Below, one piece after another: positions 31,312 to 57,735 of a stretch of 64,000 nucleotides of DNA; the first letter of the stretch is position 1; every line of letters begins with the position of its first letter. The translations under genes and the position numbers were made by a program. Under the pieces are notes generated by a model. It had not been told where the DNA came from and ran no database searches. It saw only the letters and a list, made by a program, of their open reading frames with translations. Origin of the DNA: Promethearchaeota archaeon (GTDB lineage Archaea > Asgardarchaeota > Lokiarchaeia > Sigyniarchaeales > SOKP01); the NCBI GenBank assembly GCA_016839745.1, contig JAEOTS010000009.1, forward strand, positions 18,131 to 82,130, given 5' to 3'.

Positions 31312-31419
31312 ACATTCAATTCTCCATCTATCATTTTTAAAGTTTTTATTAATTTTTTAAAGATTATAGAAAAATAAGATTGTTTAAGAGAATTAATTCT
31401 AATTAAGAGGTTTTAGGGT

Positions 31420-32610: not shown

Positions 32611-32797
32611 TTAAGGCGCCAACTCTCAATATTCAAATATCCATTGATCTCTTATTTTCCGAATATAAATCTTTTATGTTTCTGGAATTTATCAAAACAA
32701 TACTGCTTTAAATACGAGTTTTATAAAAAATTATGAAAGAGATTCAATAAAAATATTGGTTAAATAAAAATGAAAAAGTAAGAAATTAAAGTTGCAT

Positions 32798-33745
32798 TTA
32801 GTTTCCGATAATATCCTTTAACTTGGGAAAGATTCGGGGATAATGCACCGCCATGCAATGGATCCCTGCTAGGAGGTTTTTACTTCGTAATTCTGATATG
32901 AATGGTTTGAAGAAATCATAATTATATTGATCGTATAATTTTTTCTGCTCCTTTTTATCAGTGACTTCTTTTTTAACGTTTTTCCACTTAGCTAAGATTT
33001 CTTTAGGGACGCTAACGCCAGGTACAAAAGTATCGAAACCTTTAGCAATTCCATATGACTTCATTGGAAATATTCCAAGTAATATCGGCACTTTATACTT
33101 CTTGATTTCTGTTAAAAACTCTATAGTACGATCGAGGTCGTAAACAACTTGAGTTTGGATAAATTCACAACCCGCTTCTGCTTTTCTACCTATTTTTAAT
33201 ATTTCTGCGCCCATTGGTTCAGCATTAGGATTTGCAGCCGCCCCAACATGTAAAGTTGGAGGTGCTTCGATCTCGTTACCGTTAATAGAACCTTTATCAA
33301 CCATTTCCCTCACTAACTTTACCAGCGTTGCGGAATCAAGATCAAAAACAGGTTTTGACTCGGGCATATCGCCTAAAGCTGTGTGATCGCCTGTTAGAGA
33401 AAGAACATTGCGTATCCCTAGAGCGTGCGCGCCCATTATCATTCCCGCAATTCCTAACTTATTAACATCCCTTACAGTCATTTGCCAAACGCATTCTAAA
33501 CCGGCAGCTTTTTGAATTAAATGCGTTGCAGCCATAGAATTTATTGTTACAATGCCTAAGGGACTATCTGTCACATTTGCAGCAATAACATAGGGGGCCA
33601 TTTCTTTAGCTTCATGGATAGTGTGAGAGAGATCCGTTGTTTTTTCAGGCTCAAGTTCACCTGTTAATATAAATTCACCCTTCGCGATGGCCTCTCCTAA
33701 TTTGGAATAAGTTTTTACTTCTGTCATTTTCACATTTACCTCCAA
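32798..33745 (-). CDS. metF: Methylenetetrahydrofolate reductase, copy 1
   Basis: GELEP, ANVTD, QMTVRD.N, LTGDH, VFDLDS, FIQTQ and PGVSVP motifs. The true start is probably the ATG near 33727. Confidence 0.9.
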   Translation of the reverse strand: MEVNVKMTEVKTYSKLGEAIAKGEFILTGELEPEKTTDLSHTIHEAKEMAPYVIAANVTDSPLGIVTINSMAATHLIQKAAGLECVWQMTVRDVNKLGIAGMIMGAHALGIRNVLSLTGDHTALGDMPESKPVFDLDSATLVKLVREMVDKGSINGNEIEAPPTLHVGAAANPNAEPMGAEILKIGRKAEAGCEFIQTQVVYDLDRTIEFLTEIKKYKVPILLGIFPMKSYGIAKGFDTFVPGVSVPKEILAKWKNVKKEVTDKKEQKKLYDQYNYDFFKPFISELRSKNLLAGIHCMAVHYPRIFPKLKDIIGN

Positions 33746-34407
33746 ACTATCTCTCTTTGATGACCGATCTTACTCCAATCCAATGGGTCTCTTAATTTTG
33801 AAAATAAGTCTAAACGGCCTAACTCTTTTAGGCGATTATATATCGTTATCCAACCGCAGTCTTTCTCATAATCACCCACTTCACATTTTCCATCCACCAT
33901 ACCTCCACAAGGTCCATTCATAAGCGCTTTAGCGCAAGTTGTGACTGGACAAATACCTCCAGTTTCGTTTAACAAACAATCGCCACACCCTTTGCAACGC
34001 ATATAGAAACGTCCGATGCGTTCTGTCATTCCTATAAACTCAGTGTTATTAGCCGTGAAAACGGGTATTTCTGGATGAGATTTCGTAAGAACTTCAATAA
34101 TCGATTGTACCCCTAAACCACAGGCTAATGTTAAAATACCGTCTGAGTTTTTAACATCCTCATCAATCTTGCGTAAATCTTTTTTCATCACACGGTTATC
34201 ACAAACATCCTCGCTCACTATTGCATTAGTAACATTAAATCCCCTTTCTTTTAGTTTTTCCGACCATTCCTCAGCTCCTTCACTCCCCCCAGTTTGACAG
34301 AGAGCTGCGCAAACCCCACAGCTCACGACTAATATATTTTTTACTTTATAATTGTTAAGAGCTTCAAAAACCTCTTCTTCCGGTTTTTTCGTTGTTATTA
34401 CAACCAT
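33736..34407 (-). CDS. metV: MetV (MTHFR-associated Fe-S/Zn subunit), copy 1
   Basis: C..C...C.TGG, LACGLGVQ and C..CG.C.L..TGGICP...CAK.L.NGPCGG..GKCE..C.W motifs. Confidence 0.9.
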   Translation of the reverse strand: MVVITTKKPEEEVFEALNNYKVKNILVVSCGVCAALCQTGGSEGAEEWSEKLKERGFNVTNAIVSEDVCDNRVMKKDLRKIDEDVKNSDGILTLACGLGVQSIIEVLTKSHPEIPVFTANNTEFIGMTERIGRFYMRCKGCGDCLLNETGGICPVTTCAKALMNGPCGGMVDGKCEVGDYEKDCGWITIYNRLKELGRLDLFSKLRDPLDWSKIGHQREIVWR

Positions 34408-42102: not shown

Positions 42103-42594
42103 CTACATAGGAACTTTCTCATTTTGAGATACGGTCTTAATAGGTTTTAAAACTACGCAAACTCGTTCCACTCCTTTAACATCGCTTCTACCTCTAAAAC
42201 TTTCTATAACTGCATCGAGTTCATTTATTTCTGGAACATTTACCTTAACAAGAATGCCACATTCTCCCGCTAAGAAATATACTTCTTCACACTGGGGAAG
42301 TATTTGGGCTTCTCGCAATAATTCCTTTAATTCGGATTGACTTCTCGGGATCAATGTGATAAATGCTATTATACAGTGTTCGTCCTCTCTACATACCTTA
42401 ATCGTGAACTTTTCTATTACGTTTTCGTCTTGAAGTTTAATAACTCTTTTTCTCACGGTGGATTCACTCATTCCTATTTCCTCTCCTATTTCTCGATATG
42501 GTCTTCGTGAATCCTCGATTAACATTTCTAGAATTTGTTTATCTTTCTCATCTAAATTTTTCATATTTCTATCACACTCTTCCAATTTGTTCAA
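42103..42594 (-). CDS. Lrp/AsnC-family transcriptional regulator
   Basis: LDEKDKQILEML.EDSRRPYREIG..IGMSESTVRKRV. The true start is probably the ATG near 42564. Confidence 0.9.
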   Translation of the reverse strand: MNKLEECDRNMKNLDEKDKQILEMLIEDSRRPYREIGEEIGMSESTVRKRVIKLQDENVIEKFTIKVCREDEHCIIAFITLIPRSQSELKELLREAQILPQCEEVYFLAGECGILVKVNVPEINELDAVIESFRGRSDVKGVERVCVVLKPIKTVSQNEKVPM

Positions 42595-42641
42595 ATACAG
42601 TAAAAAAATTATTAAAATTAAATTTTATATTACACTATTAA

Positions 42642-43580
42642 CTAAAAATTCTTTAATAATGGCTCAAAAAGCCTTTCGTAGTGAACGGCCATGCAATGAA
42701 TGCCCGCAGCCTTAGTAGTTTTCTGGATTTCTCTTATAAACGGTTCAAAAAAATCAATATTAATTTTATCGATAGCTTGATTCCGTTTTTTCTTATCTTC
42801 TTTGAATTCCTTTTTTACACTTTTTAAAGCGCTCAAAAGATCCTTTGGAACTGAAACACCAGGGATGTACTCGTTAAAATACCAAGCAATTCCATAATTT
42901 TTTATAGGAAATAATCCCAGCAAAACAGGAACATTGAATCTTTCTAATTCTTTTAAAAATTCCTTGGCATCATCTATATCAAAAGATGTTTGAGTTTGAA
43001 TGAAATCAGCACCAACTTCTACTTTTCTTCCTACTTTAAGGATTTCAGGTTCTCTGGGGTTTGAATTTGGATTAGCGGCGCATCCCACATTCATTTCGAT
43101 TTTCCCACCTTCAATTTCGTTTCCCTCTAAGTCAGTACCATCATCTACCATTTTAGAAACGAGATCGATTAATTGTGTAGAGTCTAAATCATATACTGCT
43201 CTTGCATTTTTATTATCTCCTAACGCTGAATGATCTCCTGTCAAAGCTAAAAGGTTTCTCAATCCAAGAATCGAACCTCCTAAAATATCACCAAATAAAG
43301 CAATCCTATTCCTATCTCTAACGGTTATCTGCCAGATGGCTTCTAGCCCTACTTTTTCTTGAACTAAATGGCATGGTACCAAAGAGCAAGTGTAAGCGTC
43401 TCCTTGTGGTCCATCAGTTACATTAGCCGCAGTAATCTTTCCCGTTTTCTTCATTTCTTCTGCGGAATGCAGAATGGAGGATAAATCAACCATCTTTTTC
43501 GGCTCCAATTCACCAGTGAATAAAAATTTGCCTTCTTTCATTGTTTTTACTAAATTACTATATGCTGGTCTTTTTGCCAT
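42642..43580 (-). CDS. metF: Methylenetetrahydrofolate reductase, copy 2
   Basis: GELEP, ANVTD, QITVRDRN, LTGDH, YDLDS and FIQTQ motifs. Confidence 0.9.
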   Translation of the reverse strand: MAKRPAYSNLVKTMKEGKFLFTGELEPKKMVDLSSILHSAEEMKKTGKITAANVTDGPQGDAYTCSLVPCHLVQEKVGLEAIWQITVRDRNRIALFGDILGGSILGLRNLLALTGDHSALGDNKNARAVYDLDSTQLIDLVSKMVDDGTDLEGNEIEGGKIEMNVGCAANPNSNPREPEILKVGRKVEVGADFIQTQTSFDIDDAKEFLKELERFNVPVLLGLFPIKNYGIAWYFNEYIPGVSVPKDLLSALKSVKKEFKEDKKKRNQAIDKINIDFFEPFIREIQKTTKAAGIHCMAVHYERLFEPLLKNF

Positions 43581-43583
43581 TTT

Positions 43584-44282
43584 TTAATTCTCCTCCTTTT
43601 GTGGTTCAGTTTCTTCGTTTGTGAACGTTTTATTTATCTCTATGAATCTGGGGCTACTCCATAGCTGATAATTTCTTGGCGGACGATACTTATTAAAGAG
43701 ATCAAGCCTATTGAATTTCCTAAGACGTTCATAAATCTTTATCCAGGCACACTCATGTATATATCCACCAACTTCGCATTTACCATTAACTGTACCTCCA
43801 CACGGTCCATTACTCAAGTTTTTAGCACAACCTGCCATAGGACATACTCCACCAGTAACCCCTAGTAAACACTCTCCACAAGTTTCACAGTATTCAGCAA
43901 AATTATTTTCAGCGTTATTTTCTGCTCCTCCAAACATACTATTTTGGGCTGGATAAGTAATAATGTTTTCGAATATTCTATTCATCATAACAACTCCCAA
44001 ACCGCAGGATAGAGATACAATTGCATCATAATGCTCAACAAACGGTCGAACAGTTGTTGCTGCGATTCTATCGTCACATTGTCTGAGTACAGTTATAGCT
44101 TTCCATGTTAATTCCTTCCCCTCGCTCCTTGCTTTTAATTCTAGCATCTGTGCTAATACTTTTGCCTCGTTGATAGAGCGAGGAGGTTGACAGCAGCCGT
44201 CACATCCAGCTACTAAAATCTTCGAATACGGTTTTATCATCTCGTAAATTTCTTCAATATTTTTCTGTTGCGTGATTATCAT
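43584..44282 (-). CDS. metV: MetV, copy 2
   Basis: MIITQQK, GCDGC, RQCD, SCGLGV and C..CGEC.L..TGGVCP...CAK.L.NGPCGG motifs. Confidence 0.9.
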   Translation of the reverse strand: MIITQQKNIEEIYEMIKPYSKILVAGCDGCCQPPRSINEAKVLAQMLELKARSEGKELTWKAITVLRQCDDRIAATTVRPFVEHYDAIVSLSCGLGVVMMNRIFENIITYPAQNSMFGGAENNAENNFAEYCETCGECLLGVTGGVCPMAGCAKNLSNGPCGGTVNGKCEVGGYIHECAWIKIYERLRKFNRLDLFNKYRPPRNYQLWSSPRFIEINKTFTNEETEPQKEEN

Positions 44283-44313
44283 ATTATTTAACTCCTTTTT
44301 TTATCATAAATAT

Positions 44314-47300
44314 TTATTCTGATATTTTAATTGATTTACTTTTATTTTCTAATTCAATTGATCCTAATTTTTTTATTCTTTCGACGAATTCTATCATCGT
44401 ATCAGAGAATATTTTACCTTCGCTGGCAGAAATCCATTTACGCAAAAATCTATCAGGATTAATCCCTATGGATTCGAGTTCTGATTCAATTTCATTTGTT
44501 CTTCTCAAAGTATCTTGATTTCCAGCAATGTAATGACAATCTCCGATATGACATCCTCCTACGAAAACTCCATCTGCACCCTCTAAAAATGCTTGTAATA
44601 TGAGGCTCTTAGATAATCCTCCAGAACACATCACTCTTATCGTTCTAACATTAGGCGGGTATTGGTATCGACTTACTCCAGCTAAATCTGCGCCGGCATA
44701 ACTGCACCAATTGCATAAGAATGCTATGATTCTTGGACGTCCGTTTCCGAATTCAACGCGTGCTGCTTCAGCTATCATTGGTTCAATCTGAGAGGTTCCA
44801 AAATGGCTCATTGTAATTGCTTCAGCAGGGCACTCAGCGGCGCAGTCCCCACATCCCTTACACAACAAGGGGTTTACTTCGGAGATCATTTTACCTTCTT
44901 CATATTTTACTCCAACGGCTCCGTAGTTACAAACTTCAGCACATCGATTACAACCTATGCATAGTGCTGGATTAACTTTTGAAATTACACCTTCTGTTAC
45001 TAGGATATCCTTAGATAAAATTGTAGTCGCTCTCGAAGCTGCTGATAATGCTTGAGCGATACTTTCGCTGATCGTAGCAGTTCCACGGGCTGTACCACAT
45101 AAGAATATACCATCAGTTGCGAAATCTGAAGGTCTTAGTTTCACATGCGCCTCCAAAAAAAAGTTGTCACTATTTGTAGGTACTTTTAGCATTTTCGCTA
45201 ATTTTTCATTTTCTTCTCCATCAGAAACAATACCGGCGCTTAATGCTATTAAATCGGAATTAATAGACAAATTGCCTAATTTTGGTGTTTCTATTTTTAC
45301 ACTTAATTTTCCGCTATCTTGAACGATTTCTGGGGGTTTTTCATGATTAAATCGAATGAAAACAATTCCTTTTTCCCTTGCTAAGTTGTAATACTTTTCC
45401 TTAAATCCATAAGTTCTTATATCCCTGTAAATAACTACAATATTTAATTTTGGATTAACTTCTTTTGCTTTTATTGCGTTTTTAATAGCTTCAGCACAAC
45501 ACATTCTGCTACAATAGGGGTGTTCTTCGTTTCTAGAACCAACGCACTGTATCATTACTAATGTGTTTACTCCCTCGATTTTTTCAGGATTCGTATAAAG
45601 AATATTTTCTAATTCAGATTGCAAAATTACTTTATCATTTTTCCCAAAAAGAAATTCTCCTTCTTTTGGTTGATATTCGTGAGCACCGGTAGCTACGATT
45701 ATGATTCCATGCTGAAATTCCGTTGTTTCTTTATCATTACCAAAAGTAATATTTGTCGTGAAATTACAGACATATCCACCAATTGAATTGATTTTACCAT
45801 TAAGAAAAACATTAATGAGTTTATGTTCATTAACTTTTTTGATTAAATCCGAAATATGTTCTTGAACATCGTAATTTTCAATTGTTTGATGTATATTTTT
45901 AGAAAAACCACCAAGTTCATTGCTTTTTTCAATGAGAAACACTTCAAATCCTTGATTTGCTAAGTTAAGCGCTGCCGTCATTCCTGCTACACCCCCGCCA
46001 ATCACCATTCCTTTATGTATTACGGGTACTTCTTGTTCTTGTAATGGTATTAAATTACGAGCTTTTGCGATTGCCATCCTAACCAAGTCTTTAGCTTTTT
46101 CTGTGGCTTCTTTTGGCTCATGCATGTGTACCCATGAGCATTGATCTCGAATATTAGCCAAATCAAAAAGATATTTGTTCAACCCGGCTTCCCTAATTGT
46201 TGCTTGAAATAATGGTTCGTGCGTTCTAGGTGTGCATGAAGCAACTATCACTCGATTTAAGTTAAACTCTTTAATTTTTTCTTTAATATTTGTTTGGGTA
46301 TCAGCTGAACAAGTATATAGGTTTCTTTCAGCATAACTTACATCTGGTAATTTACTTGCATAGTCAACAACGTCAGCAACATCAACAACACCTGCAATAT
46401 TAATTCCACAATGACACACAAAAACTCCAATTCGGGGAGGTTCCCCAATAGTATCAATTTCTCTCGGGAGTTTTTTTTCAGTAATTAAGGTATTTCTAGC
46501 TTCAGACAATAAAATATTAACAGCTCCAGCTGCTGCACTTGCTTCAACCACAGTTTCTGGAATATCTTTTGGCTCTGAAAACATCCCACAAACATAAATT
46601 CCTTCTCGAGAGGTTTCTACAGGAGAAAATGGTTTAGTCTTACAGAACAATTCTTCGTTCAAATCAATCTTTAATTTTATCGCTAACTCTTGAGTACTAA
46701 GATTTGGCATCGCCCCTACTGCTAAAACTACTAAATTAAAAATGTCTTCAATTATCTTCCCATCTTCAGACTCATAACTAAGGATTAAATCGTTCGATTC
46801 TGAAACCTCTTTCACGGCTGAAATTCTACTTCGGATATATTTTACTCCGTATTCTTCTTGAGCACGATCAATATACTTATCAAAATCTTTTCCACATGCT
46901 CTAATATCCATTGAAAAAATGGTAGGTTGAACAATTGGCATATGTTCCTTAGCAATTACTGCTTCTTTAGCAGTATACATGCAACAAACAGATGAACAAT
47001 ATTCGCCACCATGTTTTTTATCTCTTGAACCTACACATTGCAAGAATGCAATTTTTTTAGGGATTATCCCATCTGATGGCCTAAGAATAAGACCCGAATG
47101 CGGACCACTTGCACTCAATATACGCTCGAATTGAATACTCGTGACAACATTGGGATATTTTCCAAAACCATAATGCTGTGTAGATGCTGGATCATATTCA
47201 TCAAATCCAGGTGCTAGAATTACAGCCCCTACATTAAGTGTAGTCTTTTTATCTTTAAGGGTATAATCGATGGCTTTAGCTTTACATACACCCTTACAAA

Positions 47301-47775
47301 ATCCACACCCTATACATATATCTTGATTAATAGAAAACACTAAAGGAACAGCTTGAGGGAATTTAACGGATATCGCCGCTCTTTTTGAGAGACCTTCATT
47401 AAAGAAGTCAATTGCTTCTACTGGGCATTCTTGAGCACATACACCGCAACCAGTACATGTTTCTTGATCTAAAAACAACGATTGTTGCTTTAGCTCAACT
47501 TTGAAATTACCTGGCTTTCCCGTAATTTTTTCGAGAGTAGTATTAATTAAAAGGTTGATATTTTCATGGCGTCCTGCGGCAACCAATTTTGGCGCGAGGA
47601 TACAAATGGCACAATCATTAGTTGGAAAGGTTTTATCTAGCTGGGACATCACACCTCCAATACTCATTGTTGATTCTGCTAAATATACTTTATAACCAGA
47701 GTCACCCAAATCCATTGAAGCTTGTATACCTGCTATTCCGCCTCCAATAACTAAAACCGAGCCCACTTTTTCCAT
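44314..47775 (-). CDS. hdrA: Heterodisulfide-reductase-like flavoprotein: tandem HdrA-HdrA-MvhD fusion
   Basis: Two GGG(I/V)AG FAD sites, QLDKTFPTNDC, CVGSR..YCS..CC twice, internal RIGVFVCHCG, ferredoxin motifs, and a C-terminal FLCNWCSYAGAD..RVMCSG..GCH.GDCHY. Confidence 0.93.
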   Translation of the reverse strand: MEKVGSVLVIGGGIAGIQASMDLGDSGYKVYLAESTMSIGGVMSQLDKTFPTNDCAICILAPKLVAAGRHENINLLINTTLEKITGKPGNFKVELKQQSLFLDQETCTGCGVCAQECPVEAIDFFNEGLSKRAAISVKFPQAVPLVFSINQDICIGCGFCKGVCKAKAIDYTLKDKKTTLNVGAVILAPGFDEYDPASTQHYGFGKYPNVVTSIQFERILSASGPHSGLILRPSDGIIPKKIAFLQCVGSRDKKHGGEYCSSVCCMYTAKEAVIAKEHMPIVQPTIFSMDIRACGKDFDKYIDRAQEEYGVKYIRSRISAVKEVSESNDLILSYESEDGKIIEDIFNLVVLAVGAMPNLSTQELAIKLKIDLNEELFCKTKPFSPVETSREGIYVCGMFSEPKDIPETVVEASAAAGAVNILLSEARNTLITEKKLPREIDTIGEPPRIGVFVCHCGINIAGVVDVADVVDYASKLPDVSYAERNLYTCSADTQTNIKEKIKEFNLNRVIVASCTPRTHEPLFQATIREAGLNKYLFDLANIRDQCSWVHMHEPKEATEKAKDLVRMAIAKARNLIPLQEQEVPVIHKGMVIGGGVAGMTAALNLANQGFEVFLIEKSNELGGFSKNIHQTIENYDVQEHISDLIKKVNEHKLINVFLNGKINSIGGYVCNFTTNITFGNDKETTEFQHGIIIVATGAHEYQPKEGEFLFGKNDKVILQSELENILYTNPEKIEGVNTLVMIQCVGSRNEEHPYCSRMCCAEAIKNAIKAKEVNPKLNIVVIYRDIRTYGFKEKYYNLAREKGIVFIRFNHEKPPEIVQDSGKLSVKIETPKLGNLSINSDLIALSAGIVSDGEENEKLAKMLKVPTNSDNFFLEAHVKLRPSDFATDGIFLCGTARGTATISESIAQALSAASRATTILSKDILVTEGVISKVNPALCIGCNRCAEVCNYGAVGVKYEEGKMISEVNPLLCKGCGDCAAECPAEAITMSHFGTSQIEPMIAEAARVEFGNGRPRIIAFLCNWCSYAGADLAGVSRYQYPPNVRTIRVMCSGGLSKSLILQAFLEGADGVFVGGCHIGDCHYIAGNQDTLRRTNEIESELESIGINPDRFLRKWISASEGKIFSDTMIEFVERIKKLGSIELENKSKSIKISE

Positions 47776-47777
47776 TT

Positions 47778-48548
47778 TTATCCCCCCAAAATTGATATAA
47801 ATGTTGGAATTTCTTCATTTATTTCAGAAACATCGACTAAACCTCTTGCCCTTAGAACAACTATGTGCTCTAACACCTCGCTCGCTTTAATACCAATCTC
47901 ATTTGCTATAGTAGGGACAGATTTACCTTTCTCTTTTATTTTTATTATGATTTTATGACGAATAAATTCATTTCTAACGACCTCGTCAATTAAATTTTCA
48001 AATTTCTCAACTGTAATTTGTTCGCCGTATACATTTTCTTCAGTTACTAATTCCCTTTGTCTTGCTATTAACCCTCTCAATCTAGAATCCTCTAATACAT
48101 TTTTAACAGCTTGTAACGAATCTGTTATTTGTGCTTCTTTTTGTTTTTCTTTCATTGGAGATGGTCCTAATTTTTGTATATGATTAGTAAATTCCGATAC
48201 AATTTGAGCGAATTTATTTCCTTCTGCCGCAGAAACCCAATCAAGACGCATTCGATTAGAAAAATTAACTAAACCTAATAATTTGCTTAAAGCTTTCATT
48301 TTAATTTCAGCTTCATAATTGCCAGTTAGGTAATGACAGTCTCCTAAATGACACCCTAAAACAATTACTCCATCAATTCCATGGATGAAAGCATCTGCGA
48401 CGAACGATGGATCTACTCTGCCAGAGCACATTACTCGAATGACTCTAATATTGGTCGGGTATTGAATGCGGCTAACGCCCGCAAGATCTGCACCTGCATA
48501 GGAACACCAGTTGCATAAAAATCCTAAAATTTTTGGTTCAAATTTCAT
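47778..48548 (-). CDS. mvhD: MvhD [2Fe-2S] subunit with a C-terminal helical/wHTH-like extension
   Basis: FLCNWCSYAGAD, RVMCSGR, GCHLGDCHY and WVSAAEG motifs, plus about 125 extra residues. Confidence 0.92.
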   Translation of the reverse strand: MKFEPKILGFLCNWCSYAGADLAGVSRIQYPTNIRVIRVMCSGRVDPSFVADAFIHGIDGVIVLGCHLGDCHYLTGNYEAEIKMKALSKLLGLVNFSNRMRLDWVSAAEGNKFAQIVSEFTNHIQKLGPSPMKEKQKEAQITDSLQAVKNVLEDSRLRGLIARQRELVTEENVYGEQITVEKFENLIDEVVRNEFIRHKIIIKIKEKGKSVPTIANEIGIKASEVLEHIVVLRARGLVDVSEINEEIPTFISILGG

Positions 48549-50216
48549 TTAAACACCTCCTCCGTAAGCAAAAATTTCTGCTCGTATTTGATCCCCCGTA
48601 AAGTGATGGATAATTATTGCTTTTTTAGGACAACTTGCTCCACACAGTCCACATCCTTTGCAAACTACTTTATTAACAATTGCAGTGTCTGTAATTTCAT
48701 CTTTTGTAATAGCTTTATAGGGACAAATTTTTATGCAGGCTTCACATCCAATACATAATTCCTCTATAACTTCTGCGGTTGATCCTTCTACTTCTAAAGT
48801 ATCTTTCCATAAAATTCTAGAAGCCCGCGAAGCCGCTGCATTAGCTTGACTAGTACTTTCGGCTATATCGGCGGGCCAATGCGCAGATCCGCACATAAAA
48901 ATACCATCAGTTGCAAAATCTACGGGTCTTAGTTTCACATGAGCCTCTAAGAAGAAATTATTTTCTTCTAATGGAACTTTAAGCATTTTCGCTAACTTAT
49001 CTGAATCCTCATTTGCGATAAGCGGAGTAGATAAGACTACAAGATCCTGTGGTATTTCAATTTCTTGGTTTAGTGAGTCACTATATACCTTTACTACACC
49101 TTTCTTAATAATTGGAGGTTTTTCTGGTAAGTATTTAATGAATAAGATACTCATCTCTCTGGCTTTTCGATAATATTTCTCATAAACCGTTCCAGATGCT
49201 TGAATATCTTGGAATAATATGGTTATATGAGCATTGGGATTTTTTTCCTTAATTAGCATGGCGTTTTTCATTGCAGTCATGCAACAAATATTGGAACAAT
49301 ATTTTCTTACTTCATTTCGACAACCAACACACAATATCATTGTAATGTTATTAGAACTAATTTGATCAGCCTTCAATAATTTCTCCAAGTCCAATTGGCT
49401 AATTATGTTTTTTTTATTATATCCATACAAGCCATCTGGTGTTAAAGGAATTGCGCCAGTTGCTATAATAATTACCCCCGCGTCTATTTCGATGGTTTTA
49501 TCGTTTTGTTTAACAGAAATTTTATAATTTCCAATGAAACCATCAACTTTTTCGATTACTGAGGATTTGTAAACTTTAATTTTTTCATGAGATTCGATTA
49601 AATCTAAAGTCTCTAATAACTTTGAAGCATCCTCATTACTGGGATATACTTTATTAAGGGATCTAAGGAGTCCCCCTAACTCTTTTTCTTTTTCAATTAA
49701 CGAGACTTCAAATCCTTGATTGCCCAGGTTTAGAGCTGCGGTCATTCCTGCTATTCCACCACCTATTACAATAGCTGAAGGAGTGATCGACACTTTTATT
49801 CTTTCTAATGGTTCCAATAAAGCTGCTTTGTGAACGCTCATCCTAATAAGGTCCTTAGCTTTAATCGTTCCTTTTTCTGGCTCCTTCATATGAACCCAAG
49901 AGTCCTGGTCTCTAATATTTACCATTTCGAATAAGTAAGGATTTAGACCAGCTTCTTGGCATATGGCTCTAAATAAGGGTTCATGAGTTCTCGGAGAACA
50001 AGAAGCTACGATAACGCGATTTAACTCGTGTTCTTTTATATTTTCTTTAATTTCAGTCAATCCTACTTCGGAACAAGTATAAAGGTTATCCGCTGAATAG
50101 GTTACATTTGGTAATGTTTTAGCATATTCCGCTAAAGACGGAACATCTAATACACCGCCAATATTAGTCCCGCAATGACATACAAATACCCCAATTCTAA
50201 TATCTTCGTCTGTCAT
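48549..50216 (-). CDS. hdrA: HdrA-like flavoprotein (equivalent to the second module of the fusion)
   Basis: RIGVFVCHCG, ASCSPRTHEPLF, NIRDQ.SWVH, GGGIAG, YCSNICC, EAHVKLRP and two C-terminal ferredoxin motifs. Confidence 0.92.
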   Translation of the reverse strand: MTDEDIRIGVFVCHCGTNIGGVLDVPSLAEYAKTLPNVTYSADNLYTCSEVGLTEIKENIKEHELNRVIVASCSPRTHEPLFRAICQEAGLNPYLFEMVNIRDQDSWVHMKEPEKGTIKAKDLIRMSVHKAALLEPLERIKVSITPSAIVIGGGIAGMTAALNLGNQGFEVSLIEKEKELGGLLRSLNKVYPSNEDASKLLETLDLIESHEKIKVYKSSVIEKVDGFIGNYKISVKQNDKTIEIDAGVIIIATGAIPLTPDGLYGYNKKNIISQLDLEKLLKADQISSNNITMILCVGCRNEVRKYCSNICCMTAMKNAMLIKEKNPNAHITILFQDIQASGTVYEKYYRKAREMSILFIKYLPEKPPIIKKGVVKVYSDSLNQEIEIPQDLVVLSTPLIANEDSDKLAKMLKVPLEENNFFLEAHVKLRPVDFATDGIFMCGSAHWPADIAESTSQANAAASRASRILWKDTLEVEGSTAEVIEELCIGCEACIKICPYKAITKDEITDTAIVNKVVCKGCGLCGASCPKKAIIIHHFTGDQIRAEIFAYGGGV

Positions 50217-50220
50217 TTTT

Positions 50221-51516
50221 TTATACCCTCATTACTGTCTCAGCTGCTTTAGCTGCTGCTCCACTTGCGTCTATTACTGAATTTGGGATGTCCATTGGTT
50301 CTCTACAAGCCCCACAAAGGAAGATTCCTTCTTTGGTTGATTTTTGGGGATAGTAGGTCATCCCTTTGAAAAAATTAAATTCATCAAGCTTAATTCCTAA
50401 AATTTCTGACAATTTCACTGCGTCTTTATTTGGAATCATACTCGTTGCTAAAATAACTAAGTCAAATTGAAGTTCTTTCACTTCAAACGTGTTTATATCT
50501 TCATAAACAACAATAGGATTTTTTTGTTCGTCTTGTAAAATTTTTGCAACCTTTCCTTTAACATATTCAATTGCGTAATCTTCCGAACCTCTCTGAATAT
50601 ACTTTCGAAATCCTTTTCCACCGGCTCTTAGATCAATGTAAAATATCGATGTTTGAATTTCATTATCGTGTTCATAAGCGATCATAGCTTCTTTAGTTGT
50701 ATACATACAACAACAAGAGGAGCAATAGGGATTATTTTTTAAGTCTCTTGAACCTACGCAATTAATAAACGCGAGTTTTTTTGGTTCTTTTTTATCGAAA
50801 GGCCTAATTAAATGCCCATCTAAAGGCCCAGAAGCGCAAATCAATCGTTCAAACTCTAACGAAGTTACAACATTAGGAAATCGTTCATACCCTAAGGAGA
50901 TAATAGATTTAGGATTAAACACATCGTATCCTATAGCAGCTATGATCGATGCCACGTTTATTTCAATTTCCTTATCTTCCTGATCGAAATCTATTGCTTC
51001 TCTCTCACATGCTTTTTCACATAATCTACAAGCGGATTTCGTAAACCATAAGCATTTTTCTTTATCAATTGACATGATGGCGGGAACTCCTTGAACATAA
51101 TCAATAAAGATCGCTCTCCGCTTTCTTAATTGCATATCGAAATCGTCATCTACTCTCATAGGACATTTTTCAACACATAACCCACAATTAATACAAGCAT
51201 CTTCTTTCACATACCGTGCATGGGTTAATACTTTAACCGTGAAATTACCAGCAGTCCCCTCAACTTTTTGGACTTCTGATAGTGTGCGAAGCGTAATATT
51301 TGGATGTCGAGAACATTCTGCAAGTTTTGGTGCTAAAATGCATATAGAACAATCGTTCGTAGGGAATGTTTTATCAAGCTGGGCCATTCTTCCTCCAATA
51401 CACGCGTTTTTCTCTATTAAATCAACCTTTATACCTCTTTCAGCTAAATCTAATGAAGCTTGAATCCCAGCTATACCTGCTCCAATAACCATAACGCTTT
51501 TTAACCTTCCGTCCAA
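50221..51516 (-). CDS. hdrA: HdrA-like flavoprotein (equivalent to the first module of the fusion)
   Basis: GAGIAG, QLDKTFPTNDC, inserted ferredoxin and CVGSR..YCSSCCC motifs; TTG start after GGTGA. Confidence 0.92.
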   Translation of the reverse strand: MDGRLKSVMVIGAGIAGIQASLDLAERGIKVDLIEKNACIGGRMAQLDKTFPTNDCSICILAPKLAECSRHPNITLRTLSEVQKVEGTAGNFTVKVLTHARYVKEDACINCGLCVEKCPMRVDDDFDMQLRKRRAIFIDYVQGVPAIMSIDKEKCLWFTKSACRLCEKACEREAIDFDQEDKEIEINVASIIAAIGYDVFNPKSIISLGYERFPNVVTSLEFERLICASGPLDGHLIRPFDKKEPKKLAFINCVGSRDLKNNPYCSSCCCMYTTKEAMIAYEHDNEIQTSIFYIDLRAGGKGFRKYIQRGSEDYAIEYVKGKVAKILQDEQKNPIVVYEDINTFEVKELQFDLVILATSMIPNKDAVKLSEILGIKLDEFNFFKGMTYYPQKSTKEGIFLCGACREPMDIPNSVIDASGAAAKAAETVMRV

Positions 51517-51949
51517 ATCTGTTCACCGTATATTATTTAAGGTTTTGTTATACGACTCGAAACTAAATTGCTACCGAGGATTTATTGAAAATTTCATTTT
51601 TAAGAAAAATTTTTTCTTATTAATTTAATTACTCTTAACATTTTCTAATGAATCGTTCAATAATATTATTAGAACCGATGATTCTATATAAAATTTTTAT
51701 TAAAAAAAGTAAAAAAGTGTGGAATTATTGTGATAATCAATAAAAAAATGCGGAAAAAATCAATTTCCTCAAAAAAAATATAACTAATCAAGAAGAAATG
51801 TTATTTTTTTGTTTGATTTAATTTATTTAGAAGAATAATCTTATAATAGATGACGGTATTTTTATTAATAGTATTAAGATGTTTTAATTACAGAATGGAC
51901 TACTATAAAACAAATTATTAGTGCAAAAGATAAATAAGAGTTAAGAATA

Positions 51950-53059
51950 ATGACTGAAAACGAAGTTAAACCTAAATCCTTTGTAGATCTTATCAAAGAG
52001 GTTCACGAAAAAGGTATTTGTGGAGAATGTGGTGGATGTGTTAGTTTTTGTTCTGCTGCTGAAATAGGAGCCATTGATATCTCTACAACGGGGTTACCCT
52101 ATTATTCAAATGAAGAAAATTGCCTTCATTGTGGCATTTGCTATTTAATCTGCCCCGAAATTCACGAATTAGACGAAGAATTAAATGAGAGATTTAATTT
52201 TAAGCCCCCAATAGGTAATTGGTCTAAAATAGTAACAGCTCAAGCCAGTGATCCTCAGATACAAAAGTTTGCTACAGATGGTGGAGTGGTTACCGCAATA
52301 TTGATTGCCTTATTAGAAAATAACTTAATTGATGCAGCGATTGTAGCAAAAAAAATAGGTCCCTTTCAAAGAACACCTTTCTTTGCTAAAAATAAGCAAG
52401 ATATCATAGACGCGATAGGAACAAACTATAACATAGAAGGTCCTGTTTCAGAGTTAGGAAAATACAACACTTTCGTTCCAACGATTACAGAATTAAAAAA
52501 AGTAGTTAGTTCTGATAAAATGAAAATAGCGGTTGTCGGAGTTCCATGCCAAATTCATTCCATAAGAAAAATGCAAGAGTTAAAAATAATTCCTGCTCAT
52601 GTAGTCGAATACACATTGGGGCTATTTTGTTACGAGAATTTTAAATTTGACGACGCTGCTAGGGCGAGAATAGAAGAAAGATTTAATTTCTCTTTTAATG
52701 ATATTGAAAAGATGAATATTAAGGAGAACTTAATTATAAATCTTAAAAACAAAGATGAACCACTGATAATAGAATTTTCAGATCTACAAGATATTATGAG
52801 ACATGCGTGTAGAGTATGTGAAAATTTTACGAATTACTTCGCAGATATTTCTTTTGGGGGAATTGCATCGCAACAAGGATTAACCACCACTTTAATTCGT
52901 ACTAAAGCTGGAGAGAAGATATACAAACTTGCTTTAAACAAAGGATATATTAACGAACCCAGCGATTCCAATACCTCTATCGAAAAATCGAAAATGATAG
53001 CTCAAATTATAAGCTTTAGTAAAAGAAAAGCTAATAGAGCAGAAGAATTTCAACCTTAA
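51950..53059 (+). CDS. FrhB/FdhB-family (F420-binding) flavoprotein with an N-terminal ferredoxin (FpoF-like)
   Basis: CGECGGCVSFC, CLHCGICYLICP, DGGVVT, GVPCQ, GLFC..NF and C..C..F...ADISFG motifs. Confidence 0.88.
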   Translation: MTENEVKPKSFVDLIKEVHEKGICGECGGCVSFCSAAEIGAIDISTTGLPYYSNEENCLHCGICYLICPEIHELDEELNERFNFKPPIGNWSKIVTAQASDPQIQKFATDGGVVTAILIALLENNLIDAAIVAKKIGPFQRTPFFAKNKQDIIDAIGTNYNIEGPVSELGKYNTFVPTITELKKVVSSDKMKIAVVGVPCQIHSIRKMQELKIIPAHVVEYTLGLFCYENFKFDDAARARIEERFNFSFNDIEKMNIKENLIINLKNKDEPLIIEFSDLQDIMRHACRVCENFTNYFADISFGGIASQQGLTTTLIRTKAGEKIYKLALNKGYINEPSDSNTSIEKSKMIAQIISFSKRKANRAEEFQP

Positions 53060-53383: not shown

Positions 53384-54091
53384 TTGGATTCAAAAAACGA
53401 GCAGTTCATCATGAAAATAACAGTTTCGGGCCCAACACAGAGCGGTAAGTCAAGTTTCATTAAGTACTTTGACGAAAAAGCTTTGAATGTAGAGGCAAAA
53501 GCCAGAGACAACAAGTATTATACAGTTGGAATGGATTTAGGTAGCGTTAAATTAAATGGGTTTGATGTCTTCTTATTTGGAACTCCTGGTTTATTAAGAT
53601 TTAATGTTATGAGAGATGTTGTCGTGCGAGGAGCTGATGGTCTAATTTTTATATTTGATGCGGCTCACCCAGAAAAAGACGAAGATGCAATTATAATTTT
53701 AAATTCTCTTAGAAAGGTTCTAAGTCCCGATATACCAATAGTATATTTAGCAAATAAACAAGATGTTGCAGGAGCACGACATGCCGAAGTAGTGAGGTCC
53801 CAGAATTATCTTCGTGAAGATTCAGTGATTTTTCCAACTAACACCAGAACAGGAGAAAACTTAGAAGAGGCGTTGAAATTTCTTGTGAATCGAATATACG
53901 ATCATTATTCTTCGCTCCTCACAGTGCTCCGTTCATACGAAACAAACATAGAAGGTTTGCAAGAAAAGCTGAATAAGAATCCCGTTGAAATGAGAGATTT
54001 GTTAAATAACCTTGAAATAAAGAGATTTATTGAAGTTGACAGGATAAATAAAACCTATAAGGTAAAACATGGGTTAAAACTCTTAATATAA
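53384..54091 (+). CDS. Small GTPase (MglA/CvnD-like) with a C-terminal wHTH-like tail
   Basis: GPTQSGKS, TVGMDLG, FGTPG, GADG and NKQD motifs. Confidence 0.85.
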   Translation: MDSKNEQFIMKITVSGPTQSGKSSFIKYFDEKALNVEAKARDNKYYTVGMDLGSVKLNGFDVFLFGTPGLLRFNVMRDVVVRGADGLIFIFDAAHPEKDEDAIIILNSLRKVLSPDIPIVYLANKQDVAGARHAEVVRSQNYLREDSVIFPTNTRTGENLEEALKFLVNRIYDHYSSLLTVLRSYETNIEGLQEKLNKNPVEMRDLLNNLEIKRFIEVDRINKTYKVKHGLKLLI

Positions 54092-54100
54092 CCTCTAAAT

Positions 54101-56014
54101 TTAAATTTGAGATAATTCTGAGGGTATTATTTCTTCTTTTCCGAATTTTTTTTGCATATCTATCAGATCATTTCTCTGCTTAAAGAGAACATCCCAGAAG
54201 AATTTTGGAATTTCCTTTTCTGCCTTGTACATCTCTTCCATACGGTTTAATTTATTAAGCAGAAAACTAATTCTAAGCGTGAATTGCTCGATATAATCCT
54301 CATGAGAATAATCTTGATTTAATTCTAACTTGAAAAGATTTTTCAAATCTTCATATTTCGGAAGATAACCAATTGGTGAATTAATAGCTTCGTAATCTCC
54401 TTTGGTGCGTCCTTCTGCCCATATAACCCATACTTTTTTATCTAAAATGCCATTTAAATAGTTTCCATCCTTTCCTTTAAGAAAGTAGTTCGTTGAAAAT
54501 ACTTGGGGACAATGCTTCAATTGGTGGCCAAATTTTTGGTGGTTTTTTAGATATTTACCTAGTGGGACAACCAAGAAATCGAGATTTGCCATTGGGCTAG
54601 CTTTTCTAACGCCGACAGCACCAAGAGTTGCGGTTGTTGTTTCAGATTCGATAATAGCCCCTAAAAAAATTCCATGCTCCCAATTAATGCTTTCCACTAC
54701 GGGAGGCATTGTATCTGAATCCCTTCCGCCGTAAAATATTCCGTGGATTGGTACTCCATCAGGATCTTCTAATTTAGGATCACAATTAGAAAGATCCATA
54801 AGGTTAATTGTATATCGAGCATTTGGGTGGGCGTGGGTTACTTTATTACCGTTTTTATCGGTCATTCCATCAATCCAGTCACCATAATGATTAAAGCCAT
54901 CTTTGGGATGATCTACACCCATTCCAATCCAATAGGGTTTACCATCTTTTACGAGAACGTTAGAATAAATTAATTCTCTTGGAGAAGTAAGCGCTTCGTA
55001 AATCACTGGATCGTTTTTTGCGTTTACATCTTTAATAATTCCAAAAATTCCCTTCTCTATGTTGACGGCGTGAGCAAAACCATCTTTCCACGAACGTAAA
55101 TATGCAATATCATCCCCTACAATCAGTTGTCCGGGAAGCATCGCAGTTGATGTTTTTCCGCAAGCACTTGGAAAAGCTCCGGTAAAATAGGTTACTCGAT
55201 TTTTTCCTTTCGGGCGAACTCCTAATATAAAATAATGTTCCGTGAGCCAATCTTCATTATTTGCTTTATGTATTGCTAAGCGTAAGGCTAATTTTTTTAA
55301 TCCAAGAGAATTTCCGGCATATTGGTTATTAACAGTCAATACTCGCCCTTCTTGTAAATCAACAAATATTCTACGTTTGTCAATATTCTTGGTGACGGGA
55401 GGGTTTCCCACAAGCTCCCCTGCAGAATGTATAAAGTAAAAGAAATCGTTGGATCCATTCAATTCCCTGAATTCTTCATACCCTTTTCGATATAAAAGAT
55501 CTTCAGAATGAGCAACATAAAACGAATCTGTGAGTTGTAATGCTCCAATAGTAAATTTTGAGTGCAATGGTCCAAGACAAAAAAACCTAACGAGACATTC
55601 CTTGCCTTTCATACACCCATCCATAATGTCTAAAATTTCTTCGAGACCTTCATCTCTATCCATAGTATTAATCCAGGGGCTTCGATATGCGCCTTTTGGA
55701 ATTAGGACTTTAGTATTTTCTTTATCTCTTGCTTGATCATAATAGCTATCGTAGTGAATAGTATGTCCTTCTGTTTGGAGTGTAGATTCTTCTTGATTAG
55801 ATACAGATTTCTGTTTCACATATTCAATATCCTCTTTAGAATCAGAGATTACAGTAACTTTACTTGGTTTACAGAGATCTACAAATTGGTTTACAATTTT
55901 TAATACATCCTCATTTTGTAAAGCATATAACTTCTTAACATCCTTTTGAGAAATTAACGCATTATCAACATATTTCGAAAAAGCTTCTTTATAATACATT
56001 TTAATCAGTATCAA
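54101..56014 (-). CDS. pckG: Phosphoenolpyruvate carboxykinase (GTP)
   Basis: DQAR, QLTDS.YV.HS, YAGN..GLKK, WL.EH, AFPSACGKT, GDDI, HPNAR and GGRD motifs. The true start is probably the ATG near 55999. Confidence 0.94.
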   Translation of the reverse strand: MILIKMYYKEAFSKYVDNALISQKDVKKLYALQNEDVLKIVNQFVDLCKPSKVTVISDSKEDIEYVKQKSVSNQEESTLQTEGHTIHYDSYYDQARDKENTKVLIPKGAYRSPWINTMDRDEGLEEILDIMDGCMKGKECLVRFFCLGPLHSKFTIGALQLTDSFYVAHSEDLLYRKGYEEFRELNGSNDFFYFIHSAGELVGNPPVTKNIDKRRIFVDLQEGRVLTVNNQYAGNSLGLKKLALRLAIHKANNEDWLTEHYFILGVRPKGKNRVTYFTGAFPSACGKTSTAMLPGQLIVGDDIAYLRSWKDGFAHAVNIEKGIFGIIKDVNAKNDPVIYEALTSPRELIYSNVLVKDGKPYWIGMGVDHPKDGFNHYGDWIDGMTDKNGNKVTHAHPNARYTINLMDLSNCDPKLEDPDGVPIHGIFYGGRDSDTMPPVVESINWEHGIFLGAIIESETTTATLGAVGVRKASPMANLDFLVVPLGKYLKNHQKFGHQLKHCPQVFSTNYFLKGKDGNYLNGILDKKVWVIWAEGRTKGDYEAINSPIGYLPKYEDLKNLFKLELNQDYSHEDYIEQFTLRISFLLNKLNRMEEMYKAEKEIPKFFWDVLFKQRNDLIDMQKKFGKEEIIPSELSQI

Positions 56015-56148
56015 GTTAATGTCTTAAGAAGTTAAAAAAGCATTAAAAAACTTATTAAAGCGGATTATTGAATTTTTTTTAGAAGATGTTAATTATTATA
56101 TAAAATAAATAAAAAAATTAAGAAAAAATAGAAATTTCAAATAGTTTA

Positions 56149-57735
56149 TTATAATCCAGGTGGGCGACTACCCTTGGCACTGATAATTCTGTCTACTCTT
56201 AAAATCAAGTTTGCCAATTCGCTTCCAGCTTTGATTACATGGTTAACTAAAGCCGCAGGTTCAATTATTCCCTTCTCAAAATTATCTCCAATTTCGTTAG
56301 TAAGGGTATCAATTCCTTTCCATTTATCGTTTTCAGTTTTATGAGCAGCACGTAATTCAGTCATGTTTTCTATTTCGTCTAAACCTGCGTTTTTGATTAA
56401 AGTTTTTGGAATTTCTTCTAAGGCAACTGCAAACGCATATACAGCGAGCTGTTCTTTACCGCTCATTTCGTTTGCATATTCTCTTAATCTTTTCGCAAGT
56501 TCAATGTATATTGCCCCACCACCAGCAACAACGGCTTCGGTGTCCATAACTTTTGCAACTACTGAAAGCACATCGTGTAAAGTGATCTCAGCAGAATTTA
56601 AGATTTTCTCTAAACCTCCTTTAAGCAGTATCGAAACAGATTTGGGATTTTTACAACCCGTAAATAGTGTATACTCATTGTTGGCAAGTTTTTCAAATTT
56701 TATCTTCTCTGCGAAACCTAAGTCTTCTTCGGTTAAAGAATGAAGATCGTCAACTGTGTTAGCTCCAATTGCTTTTGTTACAGCTTTCATATCAGAATCT
56801 CCGAGATTTTTGATTGCTGCTATACCTTCCTTTGCTAAATAAGCTCCAAATTTATCAGATATGTCTTTATTGTTAACAACCATATTCACGCCTAAATCTG
56901 TAAAAATTTTCAAGTAATCAATGAGAATTTTTTCTTCTTGTTCGAGAAATTTTTGGATGTCAGCAGGATTTGAAATTCTTATTTGAGCATCAAATTCTGT
57001 TTTTACGACGTCAAGTTTTCTTCTAATAACTGCAATTTTCGCATTTTTTACTACATCAGGCATTGCGGCGTTTACTTTCTCTTTCTCTATATAAACACCA
57101 TTTATCAGCTCAGACTCTCTTAGCGATTTCCCAGGAACTTTTACAATTTTGACATTTCCTACTTTCGAGAAGGTGTTTCCATCTTCTCCCCTTATGTGTT
57201 TTATAGCTTTTACAGTCAATTCAGCGAAATAATCTTTTACTCCTACTATATCTTTAGAGTTCATAGCGGTTTTAGCGGCATCTATAAGTATCTTATCATC
57301 ATCTTGAGATATTTTGGCAGCCAATTCATTTACCAGTTTTAAAGCTCTATCTGCTGCTAGTTTATAACCGTGAGTAATGGGTTTTGGATGAACATTCTGT
57401 TCGATAAGTTCAAGAGCATTTCCCAGTAAAGCAGCTGAAAATATAACAGCAGTAGTAGTGCCATCTCCGATGTCCTCATCAATAGATTTAGCGATGTTTA
57501 CCATCATATTTGCAGCAACATTATCTATATCAAGTAGTTTTAGAATTTCAGCACCATCGTTTGTTATTGTAACATCTCCTACAGAATCTACAAGCATTTT
57601 ATTCATACCTCTCGGTCCAAGCGTAGATTTGACTGTTTCGGTAATTGCCATAATAGCATTTATGTTTTGCATGCGAGCTTCTTTTTCTTTCGTTTCTTCT
57701 GTTCCTTCTCTGAGAATTATAATCGGTACAGACAT
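56149..57735 (-). CDS. Group II chaperonin (thermosome subunit)
   Basis: TLGPRGMNKM, TNDGA, GDGTTT, AGGGA and LILRVD motifs. Confidence 0.95.
   Translation of the reverse strand: MSVPIIILREGTEETKEKEARMQNINAIMAITETVKSTLGPRGMNKMLVDSVGDVTITNDGAEILKLLDIDNVAANMMVNIAKSIDEDIGDGTTTAVIFSAALLGNALELIEQNVHPKPITHGYKLAADRALKLVNELAAKISQDDDKILIDAAKTAMNSKDIVGVKDYFAELTVKAIKHIRGEDGNTFSKVGNVKIVKVPGKSLRESELINGVYIEKEKVNAAMPDVVKNAKIAVIRRKLDVVKTEFDAQIRISNPADIQKFLEQEEKILIDYLKIFTDLGVNMVVNNKDISDKFGAYLAKEGIAAIKNLGDSDMKAVTKAIGANTVDDLHSLTEEDLGFAEKIKFEKLANNEYTLFTGCKNPKSVSILLKGGLEKILNSAEITLHDVLSVVAKVMDTEAVVAGGGAIYIELAKRLREYANEMSGKEQLAVYAFAVALEEIPKTLIKNAGLDEIENMTELRAAHKTENDKWKGIDTLTNEIGDNFEKGIIEPAALVNHVIKAGSELANLILRVDRIISAKGSRPPGL

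Follow-up and report, generated by a model that had tools for sequence, protein, structure and literature searches.

Organization of a Lokiarchaeial Hdr-MetVF operon

The window, a 64,000-nucleotide stretch of contig C17 of a 3.53-Mb, 89%-complete metagenome-assembled genome (MAG) from the Promethearchaeota (Lokiarchaeia), carries a compact minus-strand operon in which genes for HdrA-type flavoproteins and MvhD-type connectors run into metV and metF and end at an lrp gene, with an frhB-like gene diverging from the upstream end (Table 1). The original prediction had described this arrangement as hdrA-hdrA-mvhD-hdrAA/mvhD-metV-metF-lrp plus a divergent frhB-like gene; an open reading frame (ORF) check of the stretch found the ORFs within 42103-53059 exactly where they had been placed, and the Pfam and NCBIfam profiles from which our domain calls derive, run on the window proteins, agree with the gene assignments. 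Gaps within the six-gene block from hdrA431 to metF are only 4, 0, 2, 31, and 3 nt (the last between metV and metF), the metF-lrp gap is 47 nt, and hdrA and mvhD are predicted to share one transcription unit with metVF. We lean toward reading the locus as a methylene-tetrahydropterin reductase of the MetVF kind, a Lokiarchaeial version of the Hdr-type ("fourth type") enzyme, with an FrhB-type port for coenzyme F420, likely supplying the step catalyzed by Mer in other archaea.

Table 1. Features of the operon and its surroundings; positions are those of the window
Feature	Position	Strand	Length	Basis or remark
Ferredoxin-FrhB gene, candidate plug-in F420H2-oxidizing/F420-reducing module	51950-53059	+	369 aa	PF04422 + PF04432 + Fer4
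Divergent frhB/hdrA431 spacer	51517-51949		433 bp	AT-rich
HdrA431, module 1 "a" half	50221-51516	-	431 aa	HdrA2 profile positions 140-560
HdrA555, module 1 "b" half	48549-50216	-	555 aa	Alignment to 5ODC
MvhDx, MvhD/FlpD [2Fe-2S] connector plus extension	47778-48548	-	256 aa	PF02662
HdrAfus, module 2, predicted "a" half + "b" half + MvhD	44314-47775	-	1153 aa	Paralogy to the three preceding genes
MetV2, Fe-S/zinc-ribbon small subunit of MetVF-type reductase	43584-44282	-	232 aa	PF12225, E 4.7e-30
MetF2, predicted catalytic flavoprotein reducing methylene-tetrahydropterin (folate or methanopterin)	42642-43580	-	312 aa	PF02219, E 6e-31
Lrp/AsnC-family regulator, 3' end of operon	42103-42594	-	163 aa	PF13404 + PF01037
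Second methylenetetrahydrofolate reductase (MTHFR) locus	29785-34407	-		Four genes, listed next
MetV1	33736-34407	-		
MetF1	32798-33745	-		
3-Hydroxyacyl-CoA-dehydrogenase-like gene	31420-32610	-		After MetVF1
Dihydrolipoamide-dehydrogenase-like gene	29785-31311	-		After MetVF1
Eco57I-type restriction-modification methylase	27817-29697	-		TaqI-like specificity domain
Syntenic block	53384-57735			Three genes, listed next
Ras/Arf-like small GTPase	53384-54091			
GTP-dependent phosphoenolpyruvate (PEP) carboxykinase	54101-56014			
Thermosome subunit	56149-57735			

The same profiles detected neither hdrB or hdrC (CCG domain) nor a hydrogenase large subunit within the window, and tblastn found no remnant of hdrC or hdrB in the 433-bp spacer. 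The claim of an Hdr/MvhD-linked MetVF reductase operon without hdrBC in an Asgard archaeon is thus borne out. The spacer itself is well conserved (76% mean column identity over 5 species), and no regulatory motif could be assigned from this five-species alignment. Four species-level relatives share this gene order, at 80 to 97% protein identity, so the operon is not an assembly artifact.

The operon codes for a pair of asymmetric HdrA heterodimer modules, each with its MvhD connector, which together give four flavin adenine dinucleotide (FAD) sites. Module 1 is split over three genes (hdrA431, hdrA555, and an mvhD with a winged-helix-like extension), and module 2 is a single HdrA-HdrA-MvhD fusion whose residues 3-411, 445-1001, and 1014-1153 are 43%, 49%, and 48% identical to HdrA431, HdrA555, and MvhDx, respectively; the 1153-aa protein is a fused paralogue of the three genes preceding it. 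HdrA431 aligns to residues 144-563 of HdrA in 5ODC and comprises a thioredoxin-reductase-like FAD domain with an inserted 2x[4Fe-4S] ferredoxin domain; it keeps Cys194 and Cys197 and has no N-terminal domain and no C-terminal ferredoxin domain. HdrA555 aligns to residues 2-239 and 307-643 and has an N-terminal [4Fe-4S] domain, the FAD domain, and a C-terminal 2x[4Fe-4S] ferredoxin domain; it has lost the inserted ferredoxin domain and carries SNEDASKLL in place of the Cys194/197 pair. HdrAfus repeats the complementary Cys197 and N-terminal-domain pattern of module 1, and the 5ODC and paralogue alignments together show the features of asymmetric HdrA heterodimers. Each module therefore holds one N-terminal cluster domain, one inserted ferredoxin, one C-terminal ferredoxin, and one MvhD [2Fe-2S] connector, and none of the four HdrA halves lacks the FAD motif (GxGxxG) or the motif of the proximal [4Fe-4S] cluster (CVGSR...C..CC). 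Complementary loss of Cys197 versus the N-terminal domain has been described for heterodimeric tandem and fused HdrA of anaerobic methanotrophic archaea (ANME) and Moorella (PMC9012536).

MvhDx consists of the connector (residues 1-130) and, at ~135-256, a C-terminal extension of some 120 aa that is conserved, helical, and winged-helix-like; the mean column identity of MvhDx over 21 sequences is 87%. In a fold search of its predicted structure the MvhD core alone matched (5odc_D, 7bkb_F, 8rvu_F); the extension gave only weak RuvB/ORC-type matches, which we do not interpret. The extension is missing from the fused MvhD domains. Language-model look-alikes of MvhDx in the Atlas are FlpD+HTH_5 proteins of Thermodesulfobacteriota, which we note as a lead only.

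Operon family and secondary loss of hdrCB

A MetF2 search of species-representative genomes yielded 72 Promethearchaeota and 5 Bathyarchaeia loci, which we tabulated with the window's proteins and then with HdrC and HdrB from relatives, over 10-kb flanks. Type B (34 complete and 6 partial loci) has the order hdrA(fused, with mvhD)-hdrC-hdrB-metV-metF-lrp, and type A' (17 loci) has hdrC-hdrB-hdrA431-hdrA555-mvhDx-hdrAfus-metV-metF-lrp. Type A, comprising the window and loci L023, L025, L026, and L029, is the type A' order minus hdrCB. Locus L049 combines hdrC-hdrB with one split module, L047 has module 2 only and no hdrCB, and the Bathyarchaeia loci (n = 5) have metVF only. Almost every one of the 72 Promethearchaeota loci has an lrp gene after metF. 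Since hdrC-hdrB lies inside the operon with metVF in 58 of the 72 (17 type A', 1 L049-type, 40 type B), the idea that MetFV replaces HdrBC does not describe the ancestral design.

In a quick IQ-TREE phylogeny of the HdrA "a" halves, type A forms one clade for both modules (SH-aLRT, 99 to 100), nested in type A' with the hdrCB-bearing locus L031 as its sister. Because type A is nested inside hdrCB-bearing type A', the hdrBC-less state is a secondary loss rather than ancestral. The genome of the window and its 5 closest relatives contain no orthologous hdrB; the best HdrB match in these six genomes is 56 to 59% identical, versus 75 to 85% for the other operon proteins. We rejected the possibility that the gap is a MAG artifact, since it recurs in six genomes. 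To judge from this tree and these identities, the hdrBC-less state is real and reflects a single loss in the window's clade. Forms without hdrCB also arose independently in L047 and in L027/L028, which with type A makes three, and in every one of them a ferredoxin-MvhD tail has stayed immediately upstream of metV.

In L027 (6545-9277) and its equivalent in L028, one 910-aa protein encoded directly upstream of metV replaces the HdrA modules; it has a short HdrA-like N terminus, an NfnB/GltD-like region (Fer4_20 + Pyr_redox_2), a ferredoxin domain, and MvhD. MetF2 in these two species is 92% identical to that of the window, and no Lrp gene is present. On the other side of the operon, the GTPase-PEP carboxykinase-thermosome block (Table 1) abuts the Hdr-MetVF operon directly in type B relatives; frhB, together with hdrCB in type A', therefore sits between this block and the operon.

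The genome also carries a paralogue of the whole cluster on contig C80, with the order hdrC-hdrB-frhB-hdrA437-hdrA561-mvhDx-hdrAA1004-mvhD151, colinear with type A' over eight genes at 52 to 62% identity (L134, G000:C80:15000-33000; L135, G000:C80:6000-16200). Because AsrA/AsrB-like (NfnA-like) genes occupy the place that metVF holds in the window, the double-HdrA core appears to be a chassis with exchangeable terminal modules, repeatedly accompanied by FrhB-family genes. Downstream on C80 lie genes for a 343-aa protein without assigned family, a Fer4_22 (AsrA-like) protein, and a NAD_binding_1/DHODB-FeS (AsrB/NfnA-like) protein; the cluster may encode an Hdr-like complex linked to F420, NAD(P)H, and ferredoxin.

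This paralogue bears on whether the window's complex truly works without HdrBC or instead borrows HdrC and HdrB from elsewhere, for example from the C80 operon. CCG-domain proteins number more than 20 in the genome, and the C80 HdrB and HdrC are the closest paralogues of the lost subunits (57 to 59% identity). At that identity, however, the interface has likely diverged, the C80 HdrCB are encoded within their own complete operon with its own HdrA/MvhD set, and hdrCB-less operons took shape in three independent forms; we regard borrowing as improbable.

FrhB as a candidate F420 inlet and the Mer step

In the divergently encoded protein, an FAD/[4Fe-4S] FrhB domain (FrhB_N + FrhB_C) comes after a 2x[4Fe-4S] domain at the N terminus, and twelve Cys residues are invariant among 17 homologues. 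Its closest solved relatives, both matched over their full length, are FwdI (8rja_E; E 3e-44) and ACDS zeta (8riu_B; E 9e-36), in which the F420 reductase, with its FAD, is attached to the host enzyme through an N-terminal 2x[4Fe-4S] domain and F420 reduction has been measured (PMC11493965). For Elp-Hdr, structural and enzymatic evidence shows F420H2 electrons passing through an FrhB-family subunit and an MvhD homologue to a bifurcating HdrA (PMC12350162). The genome encodes cofG/cofH, cofD, F420-dependent Mtd, Ftr, Mch, CdhC, and FolD. The search for F420 biosynthesis that the original prediction had called for thus indicates a genome that makes F420 (cofG/H, cofD, Mtd), and both the domain architecture and the cofactor expected of a plug-in ferredoxin-FrhB protein are present. 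Two near-identical cofG-cofH pairs lie on the short contigs C104 and C106; they could reflect a true duplication or else strain heterogeneity or contamination (CheckM-type contamination, 5.8%).

A window-type FrhB (70 to 93% identity) is the divergent neighbor in 16 of 22 assessable two-module loci (5/5 type A, 10/16 type A', and L049), nine of which were located by genome search just beyond the 10-kb flank. A second FrhB subtype, 36% identical to that of the window, is encoded codirectionally in front of hdrA in L087/L088 and also inside the paralogous operon on C80 (60% identity). The FrhB-like partner of the original prediction thus gains from recurrence and from relatives that are proven plug-in F420 reductases, but its adjacency is not universal. 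FrhB is a plausible F420 inlet of the HdrA/MvhD/MetVF complex because of this recurrent divergent pairing, the second subtype in operons, the solved plug-in relatives, and the presence of F420 genes in a genome without Mer or a group 1-3 [NiFe] hydrogenase (PF00374). In such a complex, ferredoxin-FrhB would dock via its N-terminal ferredoxin domain and exchange hydride with F420, and its electrons would travel via Fe-S clusters and MvhD to the flavins of HdrA, as from ElpB/FdhB in Elp-Hdr/Fdh-Hdr. The ferredoxin-MvhD tail encoded directly upstream of metV would connect MetV and the flavin of MetF to the flavoprotein core, and the inserted ferredoxin domains of the "a" halves could be the contact for ferredoxin. 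The complex would most likely supply the methylene-/methyl-pterin step performed by Mer in other archaea, tied to the F420 and ferredoxin pools.

Several observations, here and in the two paragraphs that follow, weigh against this reading. Not all FrhB-family proteins use F420 (e.g., HCAR, 5dqr). The window protein scores below the curated cut-offs (TIGR03289, 153 versus 331.5 bits; NF040616 FpoF, 107 versus 475) and is best classed as a member of the FrhB superfamily outside the FrhB and FpoF equivalogs. Its gene is divergent and not cotranscribed with the operon; 6 of the 16 type A' genomes have no adjacent frhB and only a 54 to 58% paralogue elsewhere; and beside about 34 type B loci it is absent, with a GTPase gene in that position. 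A possible alternative, then, though one to which we give less credence, is that FrhB is no subunit at all: HdrA/MvhD/MetVF would take electrons from reduced ferredoxin or another donor, and frhB would serve another enzyme. Orientation and patchy adjacency both fit this alternative, as do the roughly 12 FrhB paralogues in the genome, which serve many clusters, and the use of reduced ferredoxin by MetVF-type enzymes in vitro (PMC9430772, PMC8760232). It accounts less well for a divergent pairing kept across species, for the independent recruitment of a second subtype into Hdr-MetVF operons and the paralogous double-HdrA operon, and for the structural precedent of Elp-Hdr and Fdh-Hdr (PMC12350162). 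Several of the genome's FrhB-family genes adjoin ~920-aa CCG-domain (HdrB/HdrD-like) proteins, for example on C145 and C185, and this enlarged set of F420-linked modules recalls ANME-1.

At 89% completeness, the best genome match to Mer is a luciferase-family protein on contig C185 with 84 bits (TIGR03555 cut-off, 349), and neither formyl-THF (formyltetrahydrofolate) synthetase (Fhs) nor a PF00374 [NiFe] hydrogenase large subunit was found in the genome. Methylene-tetrahydrofolate (methylene-H4F), the substrate originally proposed, may therefore have to give way to methylene-tetrahydromethanopterin (methylene-H4MPT), as Ftr, Mch, Mtd, and CdhC are present and Mer and Fhs are absent. Among 101 genomes of the class, each at least 80% complete, Mer occurs in 0 of 84 from the window's family and in 7 of 7 from three other families, and the MetF2 type occurs in 81 of the 84 and also in two Mer-bearing families; Mer and MetF are thus not strictly complementary across the class, and we rejected strict phyletic complementarity on this ground. 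Furthermore, 9 kb away in the window a second MetVF pair (MetF1 50% identical to MetF2, MetV1 38% identical to MetV2) lies next to Hbd-like and Lpd-like genes; it is possibly an NAD(P)H-linked system and could equally be the Mer substitute. We consider it quite unlikely, but conceivable, that MetVF2-Hdr acts on H4F as an anabolic methyl supply or electron sink apart from the H4MPT Wood-Ljungdahl pathway, with MetVF1 or a divergent luciferase-like enzyme replacing Mer. FolD is present, the family retains the second MetVF pair, which Bathyarchaeia share, and the weak Mer-like match on C185 would be a candidate; Fhs, however, is absent, the MetF2 type is kept almost throughout a Mer-less family, and the ANME-1-type MetF, which groups with Asgard MetF, is suggested to work on H4MPT (PMC9012536). 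The MetVF1 locus is kept 6 to 10 kb from the Hdr-MetVF operon in many relatives, and Bathyarchaeia MetVF loci also have an Lpd-like neighbor. Between the two MTHFR loci of the window lies a restriction-modification methylase gene (Table 1).

Energetics also depend on the pterin. The methylene-H4F couple lies at about -200 mV, the methylene-H4MPT couple at an E0' of about -320 mV, and F420H2 at about -340 mV. F420H2-driven bifurcation to ferredoxin would be feasible with methylene-H4F, as it is with heterodisulfide; because the methylene-H4MPT couple is nearly as low as F420H2, bifurcation hinges on the pterin, and if H4MPT is the substrate, F420H2 is left with no driving force for ferredoxin reduction. 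No bifurcation was detected in the bacterial Hdr-type enzyme of Sporomusa ovata (PMC9430772). Bifurcation as put forward in the original prediction is therefore not supported: MetVF as the high-potential acceptor is unproven and, with methylene-H4MPT, thermodynamically doubtful. We judge it unlikely that MetVF, via the ferredoxin-MvhD tail, is the acceptor of a bifurcation fed by F420H2 through a plug-in FrhB, and the corresponding reaction, 2 F420H2 + Fd(ox) + methylene-pterin -> 2 F420 + Fd(red) + methyl-pterin (Fd, ferredoxin), is unlikely as well. Were it true, three natural hdrBC deletions would show MetVF as acceptor of a new bifurcating reaction, and Lokiarchaeia would gain low-potential ferredoxin from the Wood-Ljungdahl pathway without any hydrogenase.

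A nonbifurcating wire is another possibility, not our preferred one: the complex would be a Mer analogue reversibly coupling F420H2 to methylene-H4MPT, and its many flavins and clusters would only conduct electrons or give ferredoxin a side-port. The methylene-H4MPT couple lies at almost the same potential as that of F420, and the H4MPT methyl-branch enzymes are present with Mer absent; the lack of bifurcation in the S. ovata enzyme points the same way (PMC9430772). On the other hand, FAD and proximal-cluster motifs in all four HdrA halves make costly machinery for a simple wire, and both modules retain the inserted ferredoxin domain, which in Hdr structures is the contact for ferredoxin or polyferredoxin (PMC12350162). 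The variant Hdr-type reductase with an F420 port remains the reading toward which we lean.

Comparison with known systems

The operon bears on two questions: the electron partners and mechanism of Hdr-type MTHFRs, a problem standing since 2014, and the enzyme that takes the place of Mer in archaea without it (ANME-1, Bathyarchaeia, Asgard). Lokiarchaeia offer a natural operon series, varying in the presence of hdrCB, the number of HdrA modules (one or two), the NfnB-like head, and the FrhB subtype (two), which shows dispensable parts against a constant wire (ferredoxin-MvhD-MetV) and makes donor, acceptor, and the role of HdrBC directly testable. It bears also on the balance of F420, ferredoxin, and C1 units in the closest archaeal relatives of eukaryotes, here without a cytoplasmic [NiFe] hydrogenase. 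Our literature search for a description of this Lokiarchaeial operon returned nothing specific; only PMC9012536 touches on related MetF and MetFV-HdrA-MvhD systems.

The nearest bacterial counterparts are the Hdr-type MTHFRs of Moorella thermoacetica and Sporomusa ovata (PMC9430772, citing Mock et al. 2014), in which, as in the window, a metV-metF core is cotranscribed with hdrA and mvhD; type A' is colinear with their hdrCBA-mvhD-metVF order, and in Moorella, too, HdrA is double, its halves having lost Cys197 and the N-terminal domain in complementary fashion (PMC9012536). Unlike these enzymes, the window has no hdrB (2x CCG) or hdrC (Fer4_8), carries both the HdrA heterodimer module and MvhD twice rather than once, and has an FrhB-type module in an archaeal, H4MPT-pathway context without Mer. 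Among archaea, the MetFV-HdrA-MvhD clusters of "Candidatus Syntrophoarchaeum" and the tandem or fused HdrA of ANME likewise have asymmetric HdrA pairs and a MetF proposed as Mer substitute. These belong to a different phylum, and no doubled module, FrhB link, or hdrCB loss series was reported for them; in ANME-1, MetF is unlinked to HdrA but groups with Asgard sequences (PMC9012536). The order within HdrAfus, with the "a" half first, is the opposite of that in ANME HdrA3/4 (PMC9012536).

For the F420 port, we infer a likeness to the Elp-Hdr and Fdh-Hdr complexes of methanogens (8RVU, 7BKB; PMC12350162), where F420H2 is oxidized by an FrhB/FdhB-family subunit and electrons reach the HdrA flavin through Fe-S clusters and an MvhD-type [2Fe-2S] center. 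Those complexes have HdrBC reducing CoM-S-S-CoB and an ElpA/FdhA scaffold, whereas the window locus has neither, with MetVF the likely acceptor, and its FrhB is only distantly related to ElpB/FdhB (E 2e-11). FwdI (8RJA) and ACDS zeta (8RIU) of "Candidatus Ethanoperedens thermophilum" (PMC11493965) have the same ferredoxin-anchor plus FAD/[4Fe-4S] F420-reductase architecture as the window FrhB; their hosts are Fwd and carbon monoxide dehydrogenase rather than HdrA/MetVF, an association that for the window we infer. The enzyme type itself is known, if biochemically unsolved, and this analysis adds to it a paralogous operon in the same genome, a pair of FrhB subtypes, plug-in relatives of solved structure, and the locus counts.

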